Assembly: GCA_964645805.1 (NCBI GenBank)
Contig: CAZYBL010000002.1
Location: 1-24,893, forward strand
Source: an uncultured Candidatus Peribacteria bacterium
GTDB lineage: Bacteria > Patescibacteriota > Gracilibacteria > Peribacterales > Peribacteraceae
Length of the DNA: 24,893 nucleotides
Reading direction: 5' to 3'
Each line of letters starts with the position of its first letter. Position 1 is the first letter of the stretch. The notes under the pieces are model-generated. The model was not told where the DNA came from. It searched no databases and worked only from the letters and a program-made list of their open reading frames with translations. The position numbers and the translations under genes were made by a program. Shown here in pieces: positions 4,747 to 16,549 of this stretch.

Positions 4747-5766
4747 ATGCTAATCCTCGCCATAGAAACCTCCTGCGACGAAACATCCGCTGCCATCGTA
4801 AAAGATGGACGAAAAGTCCTAAGCAACGTAATTGCAAGCTCAAAAGAAGCATTTTCAAATTCTGGCGGCGTAATCCCTGAGCAAGCAGCAAGACAACAGG
4901 TTAGGTGTGTGCTACCTGTAATCAATCAGGCACTCAAAGAAGCCAACATTACCAAAGATGATATTGACGCAATTGCAGTTACCAAAGGCCCGGGGCTCCT
5001 GGTCTCATTAATAGTAGGAACAACTGTTGCCAGAACTCTTTCCTCCATTTGGAAAAAACCACTGATTGGAATTCACCATACACTCGGTCATCTAAGTTCT
5101 ACATGGCTGGAAGTTGACGAAGAAATCGAGTTTCCAATCATCACCCTTTCTGCATCCGGAGGACATACGGATCTTTGGTTAAGAGAATCTCATACAAAAG
5201 GAAAACTCCTGGGACGAACCAGAGACGATGCAGCAGGTGAGGCTTTTGATAAGGGGGCTCAACTTCTTGGCCTCCCCTACCCCGGTGGTCCGGCAATTTC
5301 CGAAGCCGCAAACAAAGGTAATTTGGATGCATTTGAATTCCCAATTCCCATGCACAATGAAGAGTCACTGGATTTCAGTTTTTCCGGTCTTAAAACATCA
5401 CTCAAATACCTAATTCGTGATCTTGGAAAAGGTGACGATTGTCAATTGTCGAATGTAGCAGCTGCATATCAACATGCAATTTGCAGACATCTTTCTGAAC
5501 GCATAAAACTAGCAGTCAATAATTATCCCGAGATTGAAGAAGTTCATCTAGTCGGAGGAGTATCGGCCAACATTCATCTGCGAAAAATGGTAGAGGATTC
5601 AATTGCTCCGATAAAACTTAGAACACCTGTCAAAACCATCTACTGTACAGACCATGCTGCGATGATTGGAGCTGCTGCATTCTTTTTACATCAAGAAACA
5701 GGTGAGATTGCATTTGAAGAATTTGAGACGGTTGCATCTATGCCACTAAAAGAAGCTCTCATTTAG
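4747..5766 (+). CDS. tsaD: tRNA N6-threonylcarbamoyltransferase
   Basis: MLILAIETSCDETS, GPGL, HHTLGH, ASGGHT, TRDDAAGEAFDK, GLPYPGGP, FSFSGLKT, GGVSAN and CTDHAAMIG. ATG at 4747 preferred over GTG at 4699. Confidence 0.97.
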   Translation: MLILAIETSCDETSAAIVKDGRKVLSNVIASSKEAFSNSGGVIPEQAARQQVRCVLPVINQALKEANITKDDIDAIAVTKGPGLLVSLIVGTTVARTLSSIWKKPLIGIHHTLGHLSSTWLEVDEEIEFPIITLSASGGHTDLWLRESHTKGKLLGRTRDDAAGEAFDKGAQLLGLPYPGGPAISEAANKGNLDAFEFPIPMHNEESLDFSFSGLKTSLKYLIRDLGKGDDCQLSNVAAAYQHAICRHLSERIKLAVNNYPEIEEVHLVGGVSANIHLRKMVEDSIAPIKLRTPVKTIYCTDHAAMIGAAAFFLHQETGEIAFEEFETVASMPLKEALI

Positions 5767-5855
5767 AAAGCACTCAAGGCCGGCAAAAGCGCTGCCCCAA
5801 TAATTGCTAGTGCCCCCAACATTGCTACCACTCTAACGACTGTTTTTTGCTTCAT
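5763..5855 (-). CDS. small membrane peptide, 30 aa (not in the ORF track)
   Basis: MKQKTVVRVVAMLGALAIIGAALLPALSAF*: basic N-terminus plus one TM helix. It fills the gap after the PKD gene, and its stop overlaps the tsaD stop. Confidence 0.6.
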   Translation of the reverse strand: MKQKTVVRVVAMLGALAIIGAALLPALSAF

Positions 5856-5881
5856 AAAGGGATAAAAAATGTATAAATATT

Positions 5882-7906
5882 TTATTCTGCAGTTATAGTA
5901 ATTACCTTCTCGCTTCCAGTTCCAACAGCATCCTCAATACTTAGCTTAACACGATATGTTCCAGGTTCCTCAAATACATGTATCGGATTCTTCTCGTCAG
6001 ACTGAGCACCATCACCAAAGTCCCACTCAATACTTATAGGATTACCAGTCGTACATGACATATCGAAGCTTACTCCAAGTGGAGCCTTGCCAGATGTTCT
6101 ACTTGGGAACGCACACGCATCAAGTACAGGTGCACGTATTACTATCGTACGCTCTGCATCAAACTGTTTACCACTAGTTGTGTACGCAGTTAGTTTAACC
6201 TTAAATGTTCCTGGCTCTTCGAACAAATGCTCAACCAAAGCTCCACGCTGTTGAGGGCCACTCGAAATAGCATCCTCATCACCAAACACCCATTCAAATC
6301 CGGATATTTCCTCATCTCTAATAATTGTCTCGGATGCATCAAACCGAACAAGCAATGGTGCAGTTCCACCTTCAGGACTCATATGTATCGTCACTTCCGA
6401 CGCAGGTGGATCAACTGATAATGTAATTGGATGCCTTAAGACCTTTCATTTTGGATCTTCCGCAATCAACGTAATGTCATAATGACCAGGTCTTCTGTAA
6501 ATTGCCTGCAATTCGTTTTCTAGTGAACCTACACTTGTTGCACCTGGTGCTTCCCATCTGAATTCGATAAGCGGAGTTGAAGTCCTGGCAGCAATATTAA
6601 CAGTCAGTGGAACCTCGCCTTTGATTCTGTTTTGTTTTACTTACGGCTTGCCATCAAATTTCAAATCTTTCAAAACAAGCGGATCGACTATGCGTACAGC
6701 AGTATTCAGCTCAGCAATTCCCCCATCCTCTGCGTGAACGCGAACAGTAACCTGGTAAGTTCCTCTCTTATGGAATGTATGCCCGACTGTTTGTCCCCTT
6801 TTCTTTTTCGTTCCATCTCCAAATTCCCATATTACATCTCCAACAGGTACCTCGGTTTCAACTTTAAATTTTGTTCCAAAGGGAGCAGGACCAACCAGAT
6901 TATCCGGCTCAGTCTTTATCTCTACAGGAAATGGTGGCGGTTGAGGTTCGAAGATTTCAATCTCCCTTTCATACTTCTTTTGGGTTTGATTATCCAGCTT
7001 AACAATCGCAATAACTTTCACCTTTCCTGTCCTAAGATATGTGTGTACCGCATCAGGCAAATCCGAAACACTGTCCATTATTCCATCATCATCAAAATCC
7101 CACTGCACTTCTCTGATTAATCCAAGGTCATCAACCAAAGATTCGACGCTAAATTTTATTGGTTCATCAACCCCAGGATGCATTGGTGAATACGAAAACA
7201 CCTCTTGTGGAATAACAATCTGACGATTGATTGCTCTTATTCCACCATTGTTCAATTCCATTACTACACTTACAACGTATACTCCTTGCCTATCGAAAAT
7301 AGCAGTTGCCTCTGGTACCGTGGTCCGATCGTTTTCCTCACCATCACTATCAAAATCCCACGAGTATTCCCTTACTCCTATCCCCCTCTTATTCAAAACC
7401 TCTGCAGCTGAAGCAACACTGAATGTTATAGAAAGAGGAGCAACCATTTGGCTCTGATCAACTGGATCAACAATATTTACTACCAAAGGAGGTTCTTTCA
7501 TAGTGAGAACCGGCACAAGCATCGAAATAATTATTCCCGGAGCTACAAATCCCAAAACTCTTAGTGAGCCCATTATTCTCCTATTTGAATCAACACCCTT
7601 TCTAAATAATCTCTTAATAAAAAGGAGTGCGAACAAGAGCAAAACCACAATACCTCCAACAGCACTCATCACCCCCGGCTTAAGCAAGACATCAAACTTA
7701 TCAGAAGTATTAGGGAAAATACTTATCAGGAAAAAACACCAACCCAGATATGCTATATAGGGAACGCTGACTAGAACCAGCAATGCACTCTTCATTTTTT
7801 TGCGCGAATCCTCAGGAACACTTGCACGTGCCTCTTGAGTGGTAGCTGGAGCACTTAAAAGGCTATCAACCGATGGCCTTTGTTCCGGCTTCTTGTTGTC
7901 CGGCAT
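5882..7906 (-). pseudogene. membrane-anchored PKD-repeat protein, one reading frame with two internal stops
   Basis: ORFs 6641-7906 and 5882-6394 are in the same frame. The intervening sequence translates as a PKD-like repeat (WEAPG...IYRRPGHYDITLIAED) with TAA at 6641-6643 and TGA at 6446-6448. WDFGDG/WDFDDDG PKD motifs occur throughout. Confidence 0.8.
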
Positions 7907-7933: not shown

Positions 7934-8882
7934 TCAAGGAGTTACTCCTATTATCTCCTCTATAATAGCATTTTCCAAGTCATTTGGGAGTGGTGATTCA
8001 ATTTTTTTTAGTTTAGTGTCACCCATAGAGCCAATTATGTTTTCTAATGATAAAGGTGCCGCATCAGATGGGGCTTCTATACTTGATATTTCATTCTCAA
8101 AGAACACTATAGTGAAAGAAAGGGCCAGCTTCGAGGCTTCAGAAATGCCAAACGGAGCAATAGTCCATCTTATCTTGGAAATCTGAAATGATTCTGCATC
8201 TACCCACAATTCACCTCTTGCCTCCATTTCTTCAACCAAATTGATGATCTCCTCTTTGTCATGATTTGAATTGGACTCCAGAGCCAAAACATCCAAATAT
8301 GCTTTAAGCTTCTCTTGATCTAACACTATCTCGTAACGGTAGGCCCTCCTGTTATTAACAAAATCAAATCCATTATCCGATTACTTGTGATTGGGCTCTA
8401 ATGAGTTGAGGGTCTGGTGCGATTGCTGTCTCTGGTTTAGACACGTCTTTCAAAGGTATCCTCCACCATTTATTCAGTATCGGTTCGATAATCATTGGCA
8501 TTGTAAGCGGATGGAGTGGATTGCTATCGGCTCTCAAAAATTTTATAAACGGATCGCTGGATTTAAGAAGTACGAAATCACTTTCTAATTGGAAAAGTGT
8601 GGTTTCATCATCAATTGGTAATCTGGCATTGGTATTGATTTTCCCTTTTACAGACTCGCCACCGTTTAAATAAAATCCATTGATCTTCGCAGTTCCACTC
8701 ACACCATGCTCACCATCTGTATCAAATACATATGTACCATCAACCATAAACTGCGCTTCTTTTCTATCCTTATTTGCTTTGACTGCTCTCTCCATAACTT
8801 CTTCTACAGAGAGTCGTTCAACCTGTTCACATGAGGACAAAAAGATGACACTGCATATTCCAAGGACTAGGAGCTTTTTCAT
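7934..8882 (-). pseudogene. putative lipoprotein, frameshifted near 8370-8385
   Basis: Lipobox LSSC after MKKLL (ATG 8882). The frame stops at 8373, but the +1 frame continues DNGFDFVNNRRAYRYEIVLDQEKL into ORF 7934-8326. Confidence 0.7.
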
Positions 8883-13072: not shown

Positions 13073-13153
13073 CCACGGATTACACGGATGGCACGGATTT
13101 CACGGATAACTTTATCAGTGAAATCAGCGTATAAAAAATCAGCGTAATTAGCG
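13073..13153. repeat. 9-nt-period inverted repeat element
   Basis: CACGGAT at 13074, 13083, 13092 and 13101 (exact 9-nt period), then near-complementary ATCAGTG/ATCAGCG/ATCAGCG/ATTAGCG at 13114, 13123, 13138 and 13147. Confidence 0.85.
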
Positions 13154-13161
13154 TCTCACTA

Positions 13162-13189
13162 TTGACATCCAAACTCATTCCACTACAAT
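13162..13189 (+). promoter_or_regulatory. sigma70-type promoter of the Ile-leader operon
   Basis: TTGACA-N16-TACAAT; leader ATG 10 nt downstream. Confidence 0.75.
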
Positions 13190-13199
13190 CCCCACAGAA

Positions 13200-13247
13200 A
13201 TGATCCAGAAATCAATCATTATCAGCATTATTATTAGCCCACGCTAG
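13200..13247 (+). CDS. Ile-rich attenuator leader peptide MIQKSIIISIIISPR
   Basis: 7 Ile in 15 codons, in two runs of three; lies between the promoter and alternative hairpins. Confidence 0.75.
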   Translation: MIQKSIIISIIISPR

Positions 13248-13305
13248 CGCGAGGAGGTAATACTGACTGATAAATTATCACCCCGCGCAAAGCGGGTTTT
13301 TGTTT
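13239..13305 (+). promoter_or_regulatory. transcription attenuator (Ile)
   Basis: 1:2 is CC-a-CGC/GCG-a-GG (13239-13254). The 2:3 antiterminator pairs 13247-13261 with 13274-13288 (13 of 15 pairs). The 3:4 terminator is CCCGC-gcaaa-GCGGG followed by TTTTTGTTT. Confidence 0.75.
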
Positions 13306-13322
13306 ATATTCCCCAAATTACC

Positions 13323-13517
13323 ATGGTAGAAGAAGAAACAGATGTTTGTTTAGATACTGCACCAACGGCAGAAACTGATAAACAACCTTGTAGCACTGAG
13401 GTAGGAAGACTGCGGTCTGAAGCAAAGGGTCAGGTCGTCATTGTAAATGTCTTCCCAGTTCCACCAACCGATTCTGACGCGAATACAGGAGGTTTTTTTG
13501 ATGAATCAGAAATGTAA
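13323..13517 (+). CDS. hypothetical protein (64 aa, acidic)
   Basis: First ATG after the attenuator; no recognisable motif. Confidence 0.45.
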   Translation: MVEEETDVCLDTAPTAETDKQPCSTEVGRLRSEAKGQVVIVNVFPVPPTDSDANTGGFFDESEM

Positions 13518-13551
13518 TCTTTGCTGATTTTATTACTTATTCCCATTTATC

Positions 13552-13968
13552 ATGGCACCCAACGAAAACTTACAACTCAGATTCTCAGGCAATTCGCATG
13601 CTTATTATAAAGTTGATGATAATGGTAGGACTATCGAATTATCTGTACAAAAACCACGTCAAATGACAGATGAAGCTGCAAAAGAAATAAGAACTATGGT
13701 TTTTGAGCCTTTACTAACTCAAATTACTTCATTGCCTCCTAATTCAGATCCTGGCTCTGCTCACTTTACACCAGAGATAAGAGTTAGTTTGCCAGGTGAT
13801 TATACTAGTTTCACTAAATCAGGAAGATGTATTGAAAGAGTTCGTGATGATATTGAAGTTCAATTAAACAATTGCCCTAATGCTAACGGTTCAGCGGAAT
13901 CAGTTCTCGATCCAATCAGGCACAGATTAGATAAATGGTTAAGAGTCACAGAAGCGCTTAATTTATGA
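13552..13968 (+). CDS. hypothetical protein (138 aa)
   Basis: Open frame with host-like composition; no recognisable family. Confidence 0.7.
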   Translation: MAPNENLQLRFSGNSHAYYKVDDNGRTIELSVQKPRQMTDEAAKEIRTMVFEPLLTQITSLPPNSDPGSAHFTPEIRVSLPGDYTSFTKSGRCIERVRDDIEVQLNNCPNANGSAESVLDPIRHRLDKWLRVTEALNL

Positions 13969-14246
13969 AATACTTGGCTTCTATAAGCCATTTATCATAC
14001 CTAGTTGAACAAATATTGTATACAAGAATCACCCCTCATTTGTACACTCTTATTTACATTAATCCCCTTCCCAACTACCCCACTTTCATTCTCTCCAAAT
14101 CCCCATTTCCCCACCCAAAAATCGACCTATTCAAGCTGAACACAAAATTTAGTCAAGTGTAGCCAGAAACCGCTTTGGTAAGCTGTAAAGTCCCTAATCT
14201 ACCCCAAAGATTCTATAGTAATATCGTGAAACAGATATCACATCAA

Positions 14247-14333
14247 ATGCCGATTGAGCTTGTTTGGAGCCACGCTCTGCTGATAGCTTCGTTCACTCTG
14301 ATACTTGTGATGAGTGTGCCGACGATTGGATAA
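14247..14333 (+). CDS. small hydrophobic peptide, 28 aa (not in the ORF track)
   Basis: MPIELVWSHALLIASFTLILVMSVPTIG*; the stop is followed directly by a heptamer array, as for many real genes here. Confidence 0.4.
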   Translation: MPIELVWSHALLIASFTLILVMSVPTIG

Positions 14334-14339
14334 GAATGA

Positions 14340-14418
14340 AGTCAAAGGTCGAAGGTCAAATGTCCAAAGTCTTTCGACTTTTGACTTTTGACCAAACCTC
14401 CGACTTTAGACCTTAGAC
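14340..14418. repeat. inverted heptamer arrays (RGTCRAA)n / (GACTTTT)n
   Basis: AGTCAAA-GGTCGAA-GGTCAAA-TGTCCAA-AGTC, then GACTTTT-GACTTTT-GACC and GACTTTA-GACCTTA-GAC. Confidence 0.85.
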
Positions 14419-14423
14419 ACGTC

Positions 14424-14452
14424 TTGCAATAACCCCCCACCAGGCGTAATCT
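14424..14452 (+). promoter_or_regulatory. sigma70-type promoter of the serA-like leader
   Basis: TTGCAA-N17-TAATCT; GTG 7 nt downstream (leaderless geometry). Confidence 0.55.
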
Positions 14453-14459
14453 CTGTACA

Positions 14460-14519
14460 GTGAACACCGCCTACATCCTCAACTGCTCCCCCATTGCCTC
14501 TTGTACATCAAGAGGGTGA
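14460..14519 (+). CDS. Cys/Ser-containing attenuator leader peptide MNTAYILNCSPIASCTSRG
   Basis: GTG start, 19 codons with C-S and S-C-T-S; the TGA lies inside attenuator segment 2. Confidence 0.65.
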   Translation: MNTAYILNCSPIASCTSRG

Positions 14520-14573
14520 GCTTTTGAACATTTGTAAACAATTTCACCCTCGACAAACGCGCGAGGTTTTTTT
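14497..14573 (+). promoter_or_regulatory. transcription attenuator (Ser/Cys)
   Basis: 1:2 CCTCTTG/CAAGAGG (14497-14503/14509-14515, perfect 7 bp). 2:3 GAGGGTGA/TCACCCTC (14512-14519/14544-14551, perfect 8 bp). 3:4 CCTCG/CGAGG (14548-14552/14562-14566) followed by T7. Confidence 0.8.
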
Positions 14574-14602
14574 ATATTTATTTCCTTTTCCCAAATTACA
14601 TT

Positions 14603-15982
14603 ATGAACAGAGCACCAACATATTTAGGAGACTTGATGGCAGACCCAGATGGTCGGCCACACCAGGACAGCGCACTCATTGTTGCAACTGGCAAAGATAT
14701 GAGTGTACAAGCGATGAGAGATAGATTGGAGAATCTTCCTGTTATAGTAACTGACAACGATGACATGAAACCAACAGACGAACCTGGATTTCAGATAAGT
14801 GTGGCTGCTGTTAGAAGTGAAAATAAATTCCAAAATAATGAAACATTCCAGCTTCACCCCAAACTATTTGGTATAGCACGAGCTGGTAATGGAACAGATA
14901 ATCTCACCTCATCAAAAGATGATCCACCAGAATACCCAGAGGCAGATGCAAACAATGTACTTATTCTTAATGCACCAGAAGGAAGTAGAAATGGAGTTGC
15001 AGAAATGGCATTGGCACATACCTTAACTGCTCTTAAAAATATTTCGCGCTCAACTGATGCCTATCAAGAAAGCGAATGGCTGAGAAAAGATCCGGCAGTT
15101 GCACCAAGAGAAATGCGAGAATTAACTGTTGGAGTATTAGGCTCAGGAGGTATAGGGCAGAAGTTTATGCAAATGTGCGCTGCATTAGGTACAACAGAAT
15201 TTTATCATTATGACAGAGTAACAAAAGGAGACATTCAAGTTGGAACAGATTCATCCGGTAAACCAGTTTATGCAAAACAGAAAGATATTGATTATGTAAT
15301 TGGCAAATGCGATGTGGTTAGTATTCACACCGGAGGAAAAGAGATGCTTATTAGCCCAGACGAGATCGCAAAGATGAAACGGGGAGGAGTCTTGATAAAC
15401 ACATCAAGAGCAAACAACATGGATTATGATGCTGCTTCCCAGGCTGCGATCAAAGGAGATATATTCTTTGGTGTCGACGTTTCTCCTTTTGAAAAGAATG
15501 ATGAAAAATTCGAGGAAGAAACTGTGAAACTGTTACAAGAAGCGGCACGAGCAAACCGTGCAACCATTACTCATCATCAATCTGCAAATAGCCCAATTGC
15601 GAAATCTGAAGTACTTGATGATACGGCAGACAGAATCAGGCATTTGATCGAAATTGGAACCCCATTAGGTGCGAAATTACCCCTAAATCTTCGTAACCCC
15701 AGTGAGGTAAGCATCGGAAGAAGGTCGGAGCCCGGTATTCGTCTAGTTGCAACCCATCCGGACAAAGATGGAGCTCATCATCAAATAACAGGTATTCTAA
15801 CAGACCAACATATCAGCTTCGGAAATTGCATTACAGTTGGTGATGGAAACAACGACAGCAAGATCGCTCAAAGTATTATTGATTTACCAAGTACAGTTAC
15901 CAGCGAAGGTGCAATCAAAGTTATGGAAGAAATAAAACGATTAAATTCTGCTGGCCGTGTCCGGCTTCTTGTCTGGGGTTAA
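14603..15982 (+). CDS. D-isomer 2-hydroxyacid dehydrogenase, SerA (D-3-phosphoglycerate dehydrogenase)-like, with ACT-like C-terminus
   Basis: VRSE, IARAGNGTDNL, NAPEGSRNGVAE, GVLGSGGIG (NAD), CDVVSIH, LINTSRA, GVDVSPFE and THHQSANS. The C-terminal LVATHPDKDG...ITGIL is ACT-like. The protein is divergent, so no symbol is assigned. Confidence 0.8.
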   Translation: MNRAPTYLGDLMADPDGRPHQDSALIVATGKDMSVQAMRDRLENLPVIVTDNDDMKPTDEPGFQISVAAVRSENKFQNNETFQLHPKLFGIARAGNGTDNLTSSKDDPPEYPEADANNVLILNAPEGSRNGVAEMALAHTLTALKNISRSTDAYQESEWLRKDPAVAPREMRELTVGVLGSGGIGQKFMQMCAALGTTEFYHYDRVTKGDIQVGTDSSGKPVYAKQKDIDYVIGKCDVVSIHTGGKEMLISPDEIAKMKRGGVLINTSRANNMDYDAASQAAIKGDIFFGVDVSPFEKNDEKFEEETVKLLQEAARANRATITHHQSANSPIAKSEVLDDTADRIRHLIEIGTPLGAKLPLNLRNPSEVSIGRRSEPGIRLVATHPDKDGAHHQITGILTDQHISFGNCITVGDGNNDSKIAQSIIDLPSTVTSEGAIKVMEEIKRLNSAGRVRLLVWG

Positions 15983-16495
15983 TCACCTCTTAACCCTCCT
16001 CATCACCCCCTCAGCAAGCTTAACTCCGGAATACGCCGGATTCCCGTCATCCTGCTCGAGTGTTATATGAACTATATTTAGATTTCTTATATCCATCTCG
16101 TCACTGAACAGTACCTGATGACGTGTGTCACCAAAATGGTTTACCAGATGCCCTATTGGGATCAATGCTGCTTCGTCCTCGGTTGTAATCCAAGCCTCAT
16201 AAAACGACCCATCATCTGCAGTGTTAATATTTAACTGCACTGTAATTTCCGAAGTTCCATCTTCATACATATGTCCCTGCACAACTCCATTAGCAGGAAC
16301 CTCGGAAGCAGAGTTCATAGCCCCATATGCAAACCACTTTTCTTTTCCGTGATCCAAGTGGACTATTTTGCCTTTGCCCGGCATCACATACCTAAATGCC
16401 TCTTCACCAATGGGAGGATCTTCAACTGCTATTGAATCATCTTTGCCGCAGCTTAAAAGTATCAATGGAGCAATGAGAATTAGTAACTTTTTCAT
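15983..16495 (-). CDS. putative lipoprotein with RskA-C-terminal-like domain
   Basis: MKKLL...LLSC lipobox; FYEAWI...IPIGHL...HITLEQDDGNPAYSG resembles the anti-sigma-K C-terminal domain pattern. Confidence 0.7.
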   Translation of the reverse strand: MKKLLILIAPLILLSCGKDDSIAVEDPPIGEEAFRYVMPGKGKIVHLDHGKEKWFAYGAMNSASEVPANGVVQGHMYEDGTSEITVQLNINTADDGSFYEAWITTEDEAALIPIGHLVNHFGDTRHQVLFSDEMDIRNLNIVHITLEQDDGNPAYSGVKLAEGVMRRVKR

Positions 16496-16511
16496 AGAAT
16501 CAAATTCTAAA

Positions 16512-16539
16512 GAAACTAAAAACCAAAAACCAGAAACCA
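16512..16539. repeat. heptamer array (RAAACYA)4
   Basis: GAAACTA-AAAACCA-AAAACCA-GAAACCA in the gene junction. Confidence 0.8.
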
Positions 16540-16549
16540 ATCAACTTTT

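Follow-up and report, generated by a model that had tools for sequence, protein, structure and literature searches.

A 24,893-nt stretch of DNA from an uncultured Candidatus Peribacteria bacterium of the family Peribacteraceae (NCBI GenBank assembly GCA_964645805.1, contig CAZYBL010000002.1, positions 1 to 24,893 of the forward strand), hereafter called the window, contains a compact leader (14424–14602) immediately upstream of a gene that resembles serA. Judged by its sequence and that of its relatives, this leader is in all likelihood a real transcription attenuator and not a chance fold. An initial annotation had read it as a Ser/Cys-sensing attenuator and had proposed a comparison of the corresponding upstream regions in relatives. 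That comparison, which came to include 53 homologous leaders, revealed that the Cys/Ser codons and the helices are conserved and that the helices covary. The attenuator architecture is thereby borne out by its conservation and by compensating changes that involve the three pairing segments 2, 3 and 4 together. As to the signal, we give somewhat more credence than doubt to the proposal that the attenuator reports the supply of Ser-tRNA and/or Cys-tRNA.

Leader anatomy and the terminator/antiterminator switch

All parts of the leader lie on the forward strand. The promoter (14424–14452) consists of a −35 box TTGCAA (14424–14429), a 17-nt spacer and a −10 box TAATCT (14447–14452). Seven nucleotides past the −10 box is the GTG (14460–14462) of a 19-codon small open reading frame (sORF; 14460–14519), MNTAYILNCSPIASCTSRG, which terminates at a TGA (14517–14519). 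The part of the sORF running from Tyr5 to Pro11 (14472–14492; TAC ATC CTC AAC TGC TCC CCC) is near-invariant in the 53 leaders and includes the candidate sensor codons TGC (Cys9, 14484–14486) and TCC (Ser10, 14487–14489). Segment 1 (14497–14503) matches the beginning of segment 2 (14509–14520; CAAGAGGGTGAG) in a helix of seven perfect pairs, CCTCTTG with CAAGAGG at 14509–14515. Segment 2, which includes the sORF stop, has segment 3 (14544–14553; TTCACCCTCG) as its alternative partner: GAGGGTGA at 14512–14519 and TCACCCTC at 14545–14552 form eight perfect pairs plus one G-U. Segment 3 is common to this antiterminator and to an intrinsic terminator, in which CCTCG (14549–14553) pairs with CGAGG (14562–14566) in a 5-bp stem followed by T7 at 14567–14573 (segment 4 with its T-run, 14562–14573). 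Helices 1:2, 2:3 and 3:4 were thus found where the initial annotation had placed them, and its leaderless-type GTG sORF, with Cys-Ser at codons 9–10 and a stop inside segment 2, proved exact. Two further parts complete the leader: the 3′ flank of segment 2 (14518–14537; GAGC..TTGA..TGTA), which can pair with the 5′ coding core, and a pyrimidine-rich spacer free of a Shine–Dalgarno (SD) sequence (14574–14602), whose block CCCAAATTAC (14590–14599) recurs at 13312–13321 in an Ile-type attenuator of the same window.

The minimum free energy of the 151-nt leader is −28.8 kcal/mol, compared with −19.8 ± 3.05 kcal/mol for dinucleotide shuffles (z = −2.94), and in this lowest-energy fold the conserved coding core is paired with 14514–14536. 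Rfam scans detected no family in the whole window at the gathering threshold and none in 13100–14700 at E ≤ 1; on these grounds we abandoned an interpretation as a T-box, a riboswitch or a known leader.

The start of the sORF is as regular as its helices. In 52 homologous leaders TTG occupies positions −35 to −33 and a TAnnnT ends at −7 or −8 relative to the start codon, the GTG or ATG start following this conserved −10 box by 6–8 nt. Given this constant spacing between the conserved promoter and the start codon, we predict a leaderless mRNA. In 40 of 40 leaders the frame runs on for 18 codons or more (range 18–26), with stops at nt 54–78, and it varies synonymously: Ala4, Ser10, Pro11 and Ser14 use all or most of their codons, and Leu7 is encoded by CTC, CTT or CTA. 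Genome-wide, long open reading frames (ORFs) show no upstream enrichment of SD motifs (7% of starts versus 11% background) and G is depleted near their starts, so the organism seems to initiate translation without SD sequences. Since this is the genome norm, the SD-less start of the downstream gene needs no special cause. We rejected the possibility that the sORF encodes the precursor of a ribosomally synthesized and post-translationally modified peptide, as the peptide has 18–26 residues, no modification genes are nearby and its C-terminal part is RNA-constrained across frames. An alternative code with TGA as a sense codon was also rejected, as long ORFs are intact under table 11.

How widespread is the element? 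A relaxed pattern detected it in 53 of 200 genomes of Peribacteraceae, a family within the Candidate Phyla Radiation (CPR), in 23 of 84 genera and as one copy per genome, whereas the reversed pattern gave no matches in the same 200 genomes. An initial peptide-level DNA pattern had returned 17 of the 200 (0 for its reversed control). Such a pattern itself imposes the peptide, and sampling without any pattern was therefore added, using the DNA beside a single-copy convergent gene, RskA_C-like, that neighbors the locus. Among 40 further genomes sampled in this way, 12 contained diverged leaders, for example MIGSYVLFCSPVSSCSLSLRVRLCVV. The relaxed pattern was derived from the diverged versions, and the 53 distinct leaders that were analyzed are the total. 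Contigs of GTDB species-representative genomes yielded 14 matches. These were in Peribacteria/Peregrinibacteria metagenome-assembled genomes (MAGs), in unclassified Patescibacteria or bacterial MAGs and in one Kiritimatiellales-labeled contig, the leader of which is identical to that of a genome in the window's own genus. JGI metagenomes added 17 matches to the leader pattern. Four identical contigs carry no comparative information. A search of 5.8 billion proteins with the controlled gene found a single close homolog, 53% identical; upstream of it is the same leader, with a 19-codon sORF, MNGAYVLNCSPWSSCSPRG, that shows synonymous differences, and a hairpin followed by T6. In two genomes of the same genus the leader precedes a SerA-like gene of only 30% identity. 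Without exception, the element lies 13–60 nt upstream of a co-oriented ORF.

MAFFT misaligned segment 2, both in whole leaders and in segment-2-anchored pieces. We therefore relied on duplex and partition-function calculations made for each sequence, together with shuffle and swap controls. A terminator hairpin with a T-run is present in 53 of 53 leaders and ends 95–134 nt after the start codon. The antiterminator (2:3) is stronger than the terminator (3:4) in 52 of the 53, with means of −17.9 and −10.0 kcal/mol (−15.9 and −5.9 kcal/mol in the window), and the two structures overlap by at least 4 nucleotides, again in 52. Segment 3 comes in several types (CACCCUC, CCCCGCC, CGCCCCUG, CACCCGC, GCCUCCU and others), and segments 2 and 4 match each of them. 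When partners were swapped between leaders, cognate duplexes averaged −17.1 kcal/mol and non-cognate ones −12.6 kcal/mol, a difference reached in 0 of 10,000 permutations; kinship of the leaders inflates this statistic, but the changes nonetheless span at least eight distinct sequence types. Segment 1 is replaced in relatives by an equivalent hairpin, such as CTGGTC/GACCAG at loci L004 and L045. Moreover, the block AGAGGGTG is conserved as RNA and not as peptide, because L004 reads it in a different frame than the window does. Segment 2 starts at nt 50–60 in the 53 leaders, and the sORF stop lies between −4 and +23 nt from its first paired base in every one, so that a terminating ribosome would always cover segment 2.

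Partition-function folding under progressive masking of the 5′ end produced the behavior expected of a switch of this kind: the terminator forms in unmasked RNA, is lost when 25–57 nt are masked and is back beyond about 57 nt. Over the 53 leaders, the mean probability of the terminator is 0.71 for free RNA, 0.21 with nt 1–43 masked (ribosome at codons 9–11), 0.19 with nt 1–49 masked and 0.87 when the ribosome sits on the stop codon. The first 28 leaders also served for controls. With the middle region shuffled, the terminator had a probability of 0.72 despite 43 masked nucleotides, and shuffling of the first 43 nt lowered its free-RNA probability from 0.76 to 0.52. The latter effect indicates that the anti-antiterminator comprises more than helix 1:2. 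Indeed, blocks immediately 3′ of segment 2 are a further pairing partner of the core UAC-RUC-CUC...UGC-UC, and relatives have analogous complementary blocks (GACGTA, TTGAG, GAGC). The pairing of the coding core with the 3′ flank of segment 2 also explains why some wobble positions are invariant.

Candidate signals of the leader

If the attenuator reports Ser- and/or Cys-tRNA supply, the following sequence of events can be envisaged. Transcription would start at or beside the GTG at 14460. In an untranslated leader, segment 2 and its 3′ flank would be taken up in pairing with segment 1 and the conserved 5′ core; segment 3 would then be available for the 3:4 hairpin, bringing RNA polymerase to a halt at T7 (14567–14573). 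A ribosome that reaches the stop inside segment 2 would lead to the same outcome, termination. A ribosome lingering with its A site at about codons 5–15, on the other hand, would have its footprint over the 5′ core and segment 1. The freed segment 2 would then pair with segment 3 (about −16 versus −6 kcal/mol), block the terminator and allow read-through into the SerA-like gene. Since Cys9-Ser10-Pro11 and a Ser/Cys-rich run lie just there, scarcity of Ser-tRNA and/or Cys-tRNA would be the most likely cause of lingering, to which a slow Ser-Pro step and the conserved nascent peptide might possibly add.

The composition of the leaders is consistent with such a scheme. Codons 8–18 of the homologous leaders are 39.8% Ser and 19.3% Cys, and Cys9, Ser10 and Ser14 are found in 39, 38 and 39 of 40 leaders, respectively. 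Relatives have one to four Cys per leader, and some have SSSSS or CCC runs, the latter in few. The Ser/Cys codons fall within the computed antitermination window (A-site codons ~5–15). Among the Ser codons, 174 are TCN and 23 are AGY. For Bacillus subtilis, a published study (eLife 2013;2:e01501) reported TCN to be the class of codons sensitive to serine starvation, which may or may not apply to the present lineage.

By analogy, the strongest indirect support for Ser/Cys sensing is provided by sister leaders. We scanned the window's genome (1.34 Mb, 222 contigs, 95% complete) for a promoter with a start codon 4–10 nt further on, an sORF of 8–32 codons, a hairpin with five or more T and an ORF no more than 60 nt away. 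This architecture occurs at three sites only, two of them inside the window. The second attenuator of the window (13162–13322; leader ATG at 13200, terminator at ~13283–13302) has an Ile-rich leader, MIQKSIIISIIISPR. Its relatives, such as MKRSIIIRSIIITRAPRR, are located directly upstream of genes for citramalate synthase (L108, L112; TIGR00977, 468 bits versus a cut-off of 450) or of an IlvA-type threonine ammonia-lyase (L087, L106; ~390 bits). At locus L031 a citramalate synthase gene occupies the position matching the window's Ile-type site, where the window itself has orphan ORFs (13323–13517 and 13552–13968), as if the biosynthetic gene there had been replaced. The third site, outside the window (G000:C34:9078, the same as L125 ~1579–1712), combines a Lys-rich leader, MQHLSSTKKMKKTSQKGR, and a hairpin with T6. 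It is followed by a 553-aa divergent aspartokinase-like gene, for which the best model is lysine-sensitive aspartokinase 3 (63.6 bits versus 455). Because the Ile and Lys leaders match their targets, this lineage does pair the composition of its leaders with first-step enzymes. The sisters share with the Ser/Cys leader the promoter–start spacing, the terminator/antiterminator layout and the pyrimidine-rich spacer after the terminator; they differ from it in having classical codon runs, variable N-termini and recognizable targets in relatives. The contig with the Lys-type leader also holds a LeuA/CimA-like gene (4882–6213) and a second 2-hydroxyacid dehydrogenase gene (7947–8498).

The gene controlled by the Ser/Cys leader (14603–15982, forward strand, ATG at 14603) encodes a 459-aa D-2-hydroxyacid dehydrogenase (Pfam PF02826, 3.7e-23) with the architecture of a phosphoglycerate dehydrogenase (PGDH; SerA type, ACT domain). 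Its best PDB match, the ACT-domain PGDH 3k5p, is aligned to the C-terminus with the catalytic Arg, Glu and His in register, which fits a type II PGDH. The SerA equivalog cut-offs are missed (TIGR01327 PGDH, 97.9 versus 454 bits; PRK11790, 89.6 versus 404 bits). We therefore use 'SerA-like' as what seems a fair name for the architecture, not as a function call. The match between sensor and target that the initial annotation had pointed out holds at the level of PGDH architecture; it is weakened by a score far below the equivalog cut-offs, by the small share of leaders with such a target and by pathway partners that were not found.

Several observations weigh against Ser/Cys-tRNA sensing. The window's 95%-complete genome yielded no SerC, no PALP-fold enzyme (CysK, IlvA, ThrC) and no convincing SerB (best score 26 bits); SerC-like genes occur in 13 of the 200 family genomes and in none from the window's genus. 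A SerA-like gene is downstream of only 13 of the 53 leaders, the other 40 preceding small unrelated proteins. The window leader has just two Cys codons, at positions 9 and 15, and three Ser codons, with no run of identical codons. Its terminator has a weak stem of 5 bp (−5.9 kcal/mol), and a clean three-phase pattern emerged from equilibrium folding in 29 of the 53 leaders only. Furthermore, Tyr5, Val/Ile6, Leu7 and Pro11 match Cys9 and Ser10 in their degree of conservation, and do so through synonymous changes, a conservation that simple codon sensing does not need. Finally, the start site, termination, sORF translation, stalling and identity of the signal are all inferred from sequence; the sequencing runs that contain the locus were all of DNA, and four RNA-labeled runs from the same studies yielded no reads on it. 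The sensing part of the initial annotation is accordingly only partly upheld: the composition of codons 8–18, the near-invariant Cys9-Ser10 and the matches of the sister leaders speak for it, and the equally conserved residues other than Ser and Cys speak against it.

These residues are central to the main rival, which we consider possible though rather unlikely. It uses the same hardware, but here the conserved nascent peptide M-N-x-A-Y-V/I-L-x-C-S-P would arrest the ribosome and sense a small molecule or the translation state. Tyr5 (39 of 40 leaders), Leu7 (40 of 40), Cys9, Ser10 and Pro11 are kept through synonymous codons around a free residue 8 (N, S, F, H or A), although some of this conservation is accounted for by pairing of those nucleotides in the RNA. 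Like many arrest motifs, the block has Pro at its end, yet its 11 residues would barely fill the exit tunnel. The sister Ile leaders have variable N-termini, and the N-terminal conservation is therefore special to the Ser/Cys leader; at the same time, the sister leaders resemble simple codon sensors, and their targets match. The diversity of downstream genes would also suit an arrest peptide, whereas arrest does not need the strong Ser/Cys bias of the tail. A more far-reaching version, about equally doubtful, is that M-N-x-A-Y-V/I-L-x-C-S-P-x-S-S-C represents a new arrest module of 11–15 residues, by which, in combination with a leaderless mRNA and an intrinsic terminator, an amino-acid-auxotrophic CPR symbiont would sense a host-supplied metabolite (Cys, Ser or other) and switch on the gene in a hypervariable slot. 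In that case, the attenuator would have outlived its original biosynthetic gene and been reused as a general sensor of starvation or host state.

The variable downstream slot and neighboring elements

Most loci have the same order: a conserved sORF (sORF-A), the leader, a variable gene and the convergent RskA_C-like gene. The last encodes a lipoprotein (15983–16540, reverse strand), is the right-hand neighbor of the variable slot and is present as a single copy in 140 of the 200 family genomes. The genes downstream of the 53 leaders form 22 different clusters. The SerA-like gene is the commonest target; 12 leaders precede a family of 80–116 aa proteins that we term 'FW', and the rest precede about 20 other small families or orphans. 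None of the small proteins matched a Pfam family or had usable neighbors in the ESM Atlas. The FW family has a conserved core and a ratio of nonsynonymous to synonymous substitution rates (Ka/Ks) of ~0.5 at saturation, and by these sequence measures is likely to be coding. Two types of SerA-like gene, a (L031 and the window) and b (L002, the same as L048), are about 30% identical and occupy the same slot between near-identical leaders and flanks, suggesting cassette replacement.

Such a slot raises the question of whether the attenuator, real as it may be, has another output: the hypervariable slot gene as such and/or antisense transcription into the convergent RskA_C-like gene. The syntenic order kept in most loci, the 22 clusters and the downstream ORFs that extend into the convergent gene's 3′ end would all fit. 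However, SerA-like genes remain the commonest target and are still found downstream where the leader lies far from the RskA_C-like gene and its other usual neighbors (G187, G182), and we consider this explanation unlikely.

Less probable still is that the sORF and terminator constitute a small gene in its own right, encoding a peptide or a ~110-nt small RNA, and that the SerA-like gene has its own promoter overlapping the terminator. A promoter scan did score TCGACA-17-TATATT (14550–14578) at 10 of 12 matches, and most copies have a −10-like TAnnnT after the T-run; yet the would-be −35 box lies in segment 3 and the loop, where the sequence covaries for structure and is not kept TTGACA-like. 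A conserved peptide ahead of varying downstream genes is also what an independent gene would predict, but such a gene needs no antiterminator, whereas 2:3 exceeds 3:4 in strength in all leaders but one and covaries, and the element is always found close to a co-oriented ORF. A translation-independent leader, riboswitch-like or bound by a protein or tRNA at the conserved 5′ sequence that flips the switch, can be set aside as highly improbable: the nucleotide invariance of TAC-RTC-CTC...TGC-TC does go beyond coding need, but Rfam offered no family even at the permissive threshold, the RNA of ~107 nt has no conserved structured aptamer besides the switch helices, and the start codon, open frame, stop placement and codon-periodic wobble variation are all conserved.

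Upstream of the leader, sORF-A (14226–14333, forward strand) encodes a conserved 35-aa hydrophobic peptide, MKQISHQMPIELVWSHALLIASFTLILVMSVPTIG, with a GTG a few nucleotides after a −10-like TATAGT. Of the first 28 loci, 21 have it 40–400 nt upstream of the leader, as detected by tblastn. A motif farther upstream, TGAACACAAAATTTAGTCAAGT (14138–14160), is conserved in L031, L002 and L004 and resembles the TGTACA-spacer-TGTACA palindromes found at the same place in L098, L106 and L107; by its sequence, it is a possible operator. The region separating sORF-A from the leader promoter contains an imperfect inverted repeat (14340–14400) with units of the GTCAAAGG and GACTTTTGAC types, probably either the sORF-A terminator or a repeat element. 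L031-type relatives are without it and have a GGGTC..GACCC hairpin with T7 instead.

Elsewhere in the window's genome, three genes exceed the curated cut-off for seryl-tRNA synthetase (C152:453–1694, C12:9756–11027 and C19:5092–6345). Cysteinyl-tRNA synthetase and serine hydroxymethyltransferase are each represented by two adjacent frames (C4:9390–10842 and C6:20124–21244, respectively), and the splits may reflect a frameshift, a misassembly or a pseudogene.

Relation to known attenuators and leader peptides

Hardly anything is known about how CPR/Patescibacteria regulate their genes. A full-text literature search found no paper on leader-peptide attenuators in CPR and none on a Ser/Cys leader for serA; to our knowledge, Ser/Cys is not a described attenuator specificity. 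A terminator attenuator of the Ser/Cys type, if this is what the leader is, would thus be a new specificity. One CPR family appears to apply classical attenuation logic to predicted leaderless mRNAs in at least three flavors (Ser/Cys, Ile and Lys), placed before first-step ACT-domain-type enzymes. Such leaders could provide a sequence-level handle on the amino acids that reduced symbionts monitor, and the element described here is compact (~110 nt) and delimited by comparative analysis. Its retention before fast-changing orphan genes poses the question of regulatory-module recycling during genome reduction.

Among known systems, the arrest sensors TnaC, SpeFL and ErmBL/ErmCL likewise have a short, conserved nascent peptide with a terminal Pro, encoded in a leader that controls downstream expression. 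The C-terminal part of the Peribacteria peptide differs from theirs in being Ser/Cys-biased and not sequence-specific, and arrest and ligand are in its case only hypothetical. In addition, TnaC and SpeFL act through Rho, whereas the Peribacteria leader would act through an intrinsic terminator.

The polycysteine leaderless sORFs of mycobacteria, which make up a Cys 'ribulon' (Canestrari et al., 10.1101/834739), act on ribosome-binding sites. Common to both systems are a leaderless AUG/GUG sORF with Cys codons and action in cis through stalling and RNA refolding, the latter as proposed for Peribacteria. In contrast to the mycobacterial sORFs, the Peribacteria leader ends in an intrinsic terminator and has no SD to unmask, carries two separated Cys codons in place of a poly-Cys tract, and precedes targets that are not recognizable as Cys metabolism. 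With no consecutive poly-Cys tract, no SD and a terminator as its output, it does not belong to the mycobacterial Cys-responsive class.

The closest resemblance is to trpL, hisL, pheL, thrL, leuL and ilvL of Enterobacteria. Shared with them are a short codon-enriched leader ORF, the 1:2, 2:3 and 3:4 helices, a stop that lets the terminating ribosome cover segment 2, and an intrinsic terminator before the gene for a first-step, feedback-type biosynthetic enzyme with an ACT domain. The Peribacteria leader differs in its predicted leaderless and SD-less start, its Ser/Cys codon bias and its conserved N-terminal peptide, as well as in an anti-antiterminator that involves long-range pairing of the first 30 nt, in its CPR host and in its variable downstream gene. 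By its predicted mechanism, it belongs to the class of ribosome-mediated leader-peptide transcription attenuators of the trp/his/thr design.

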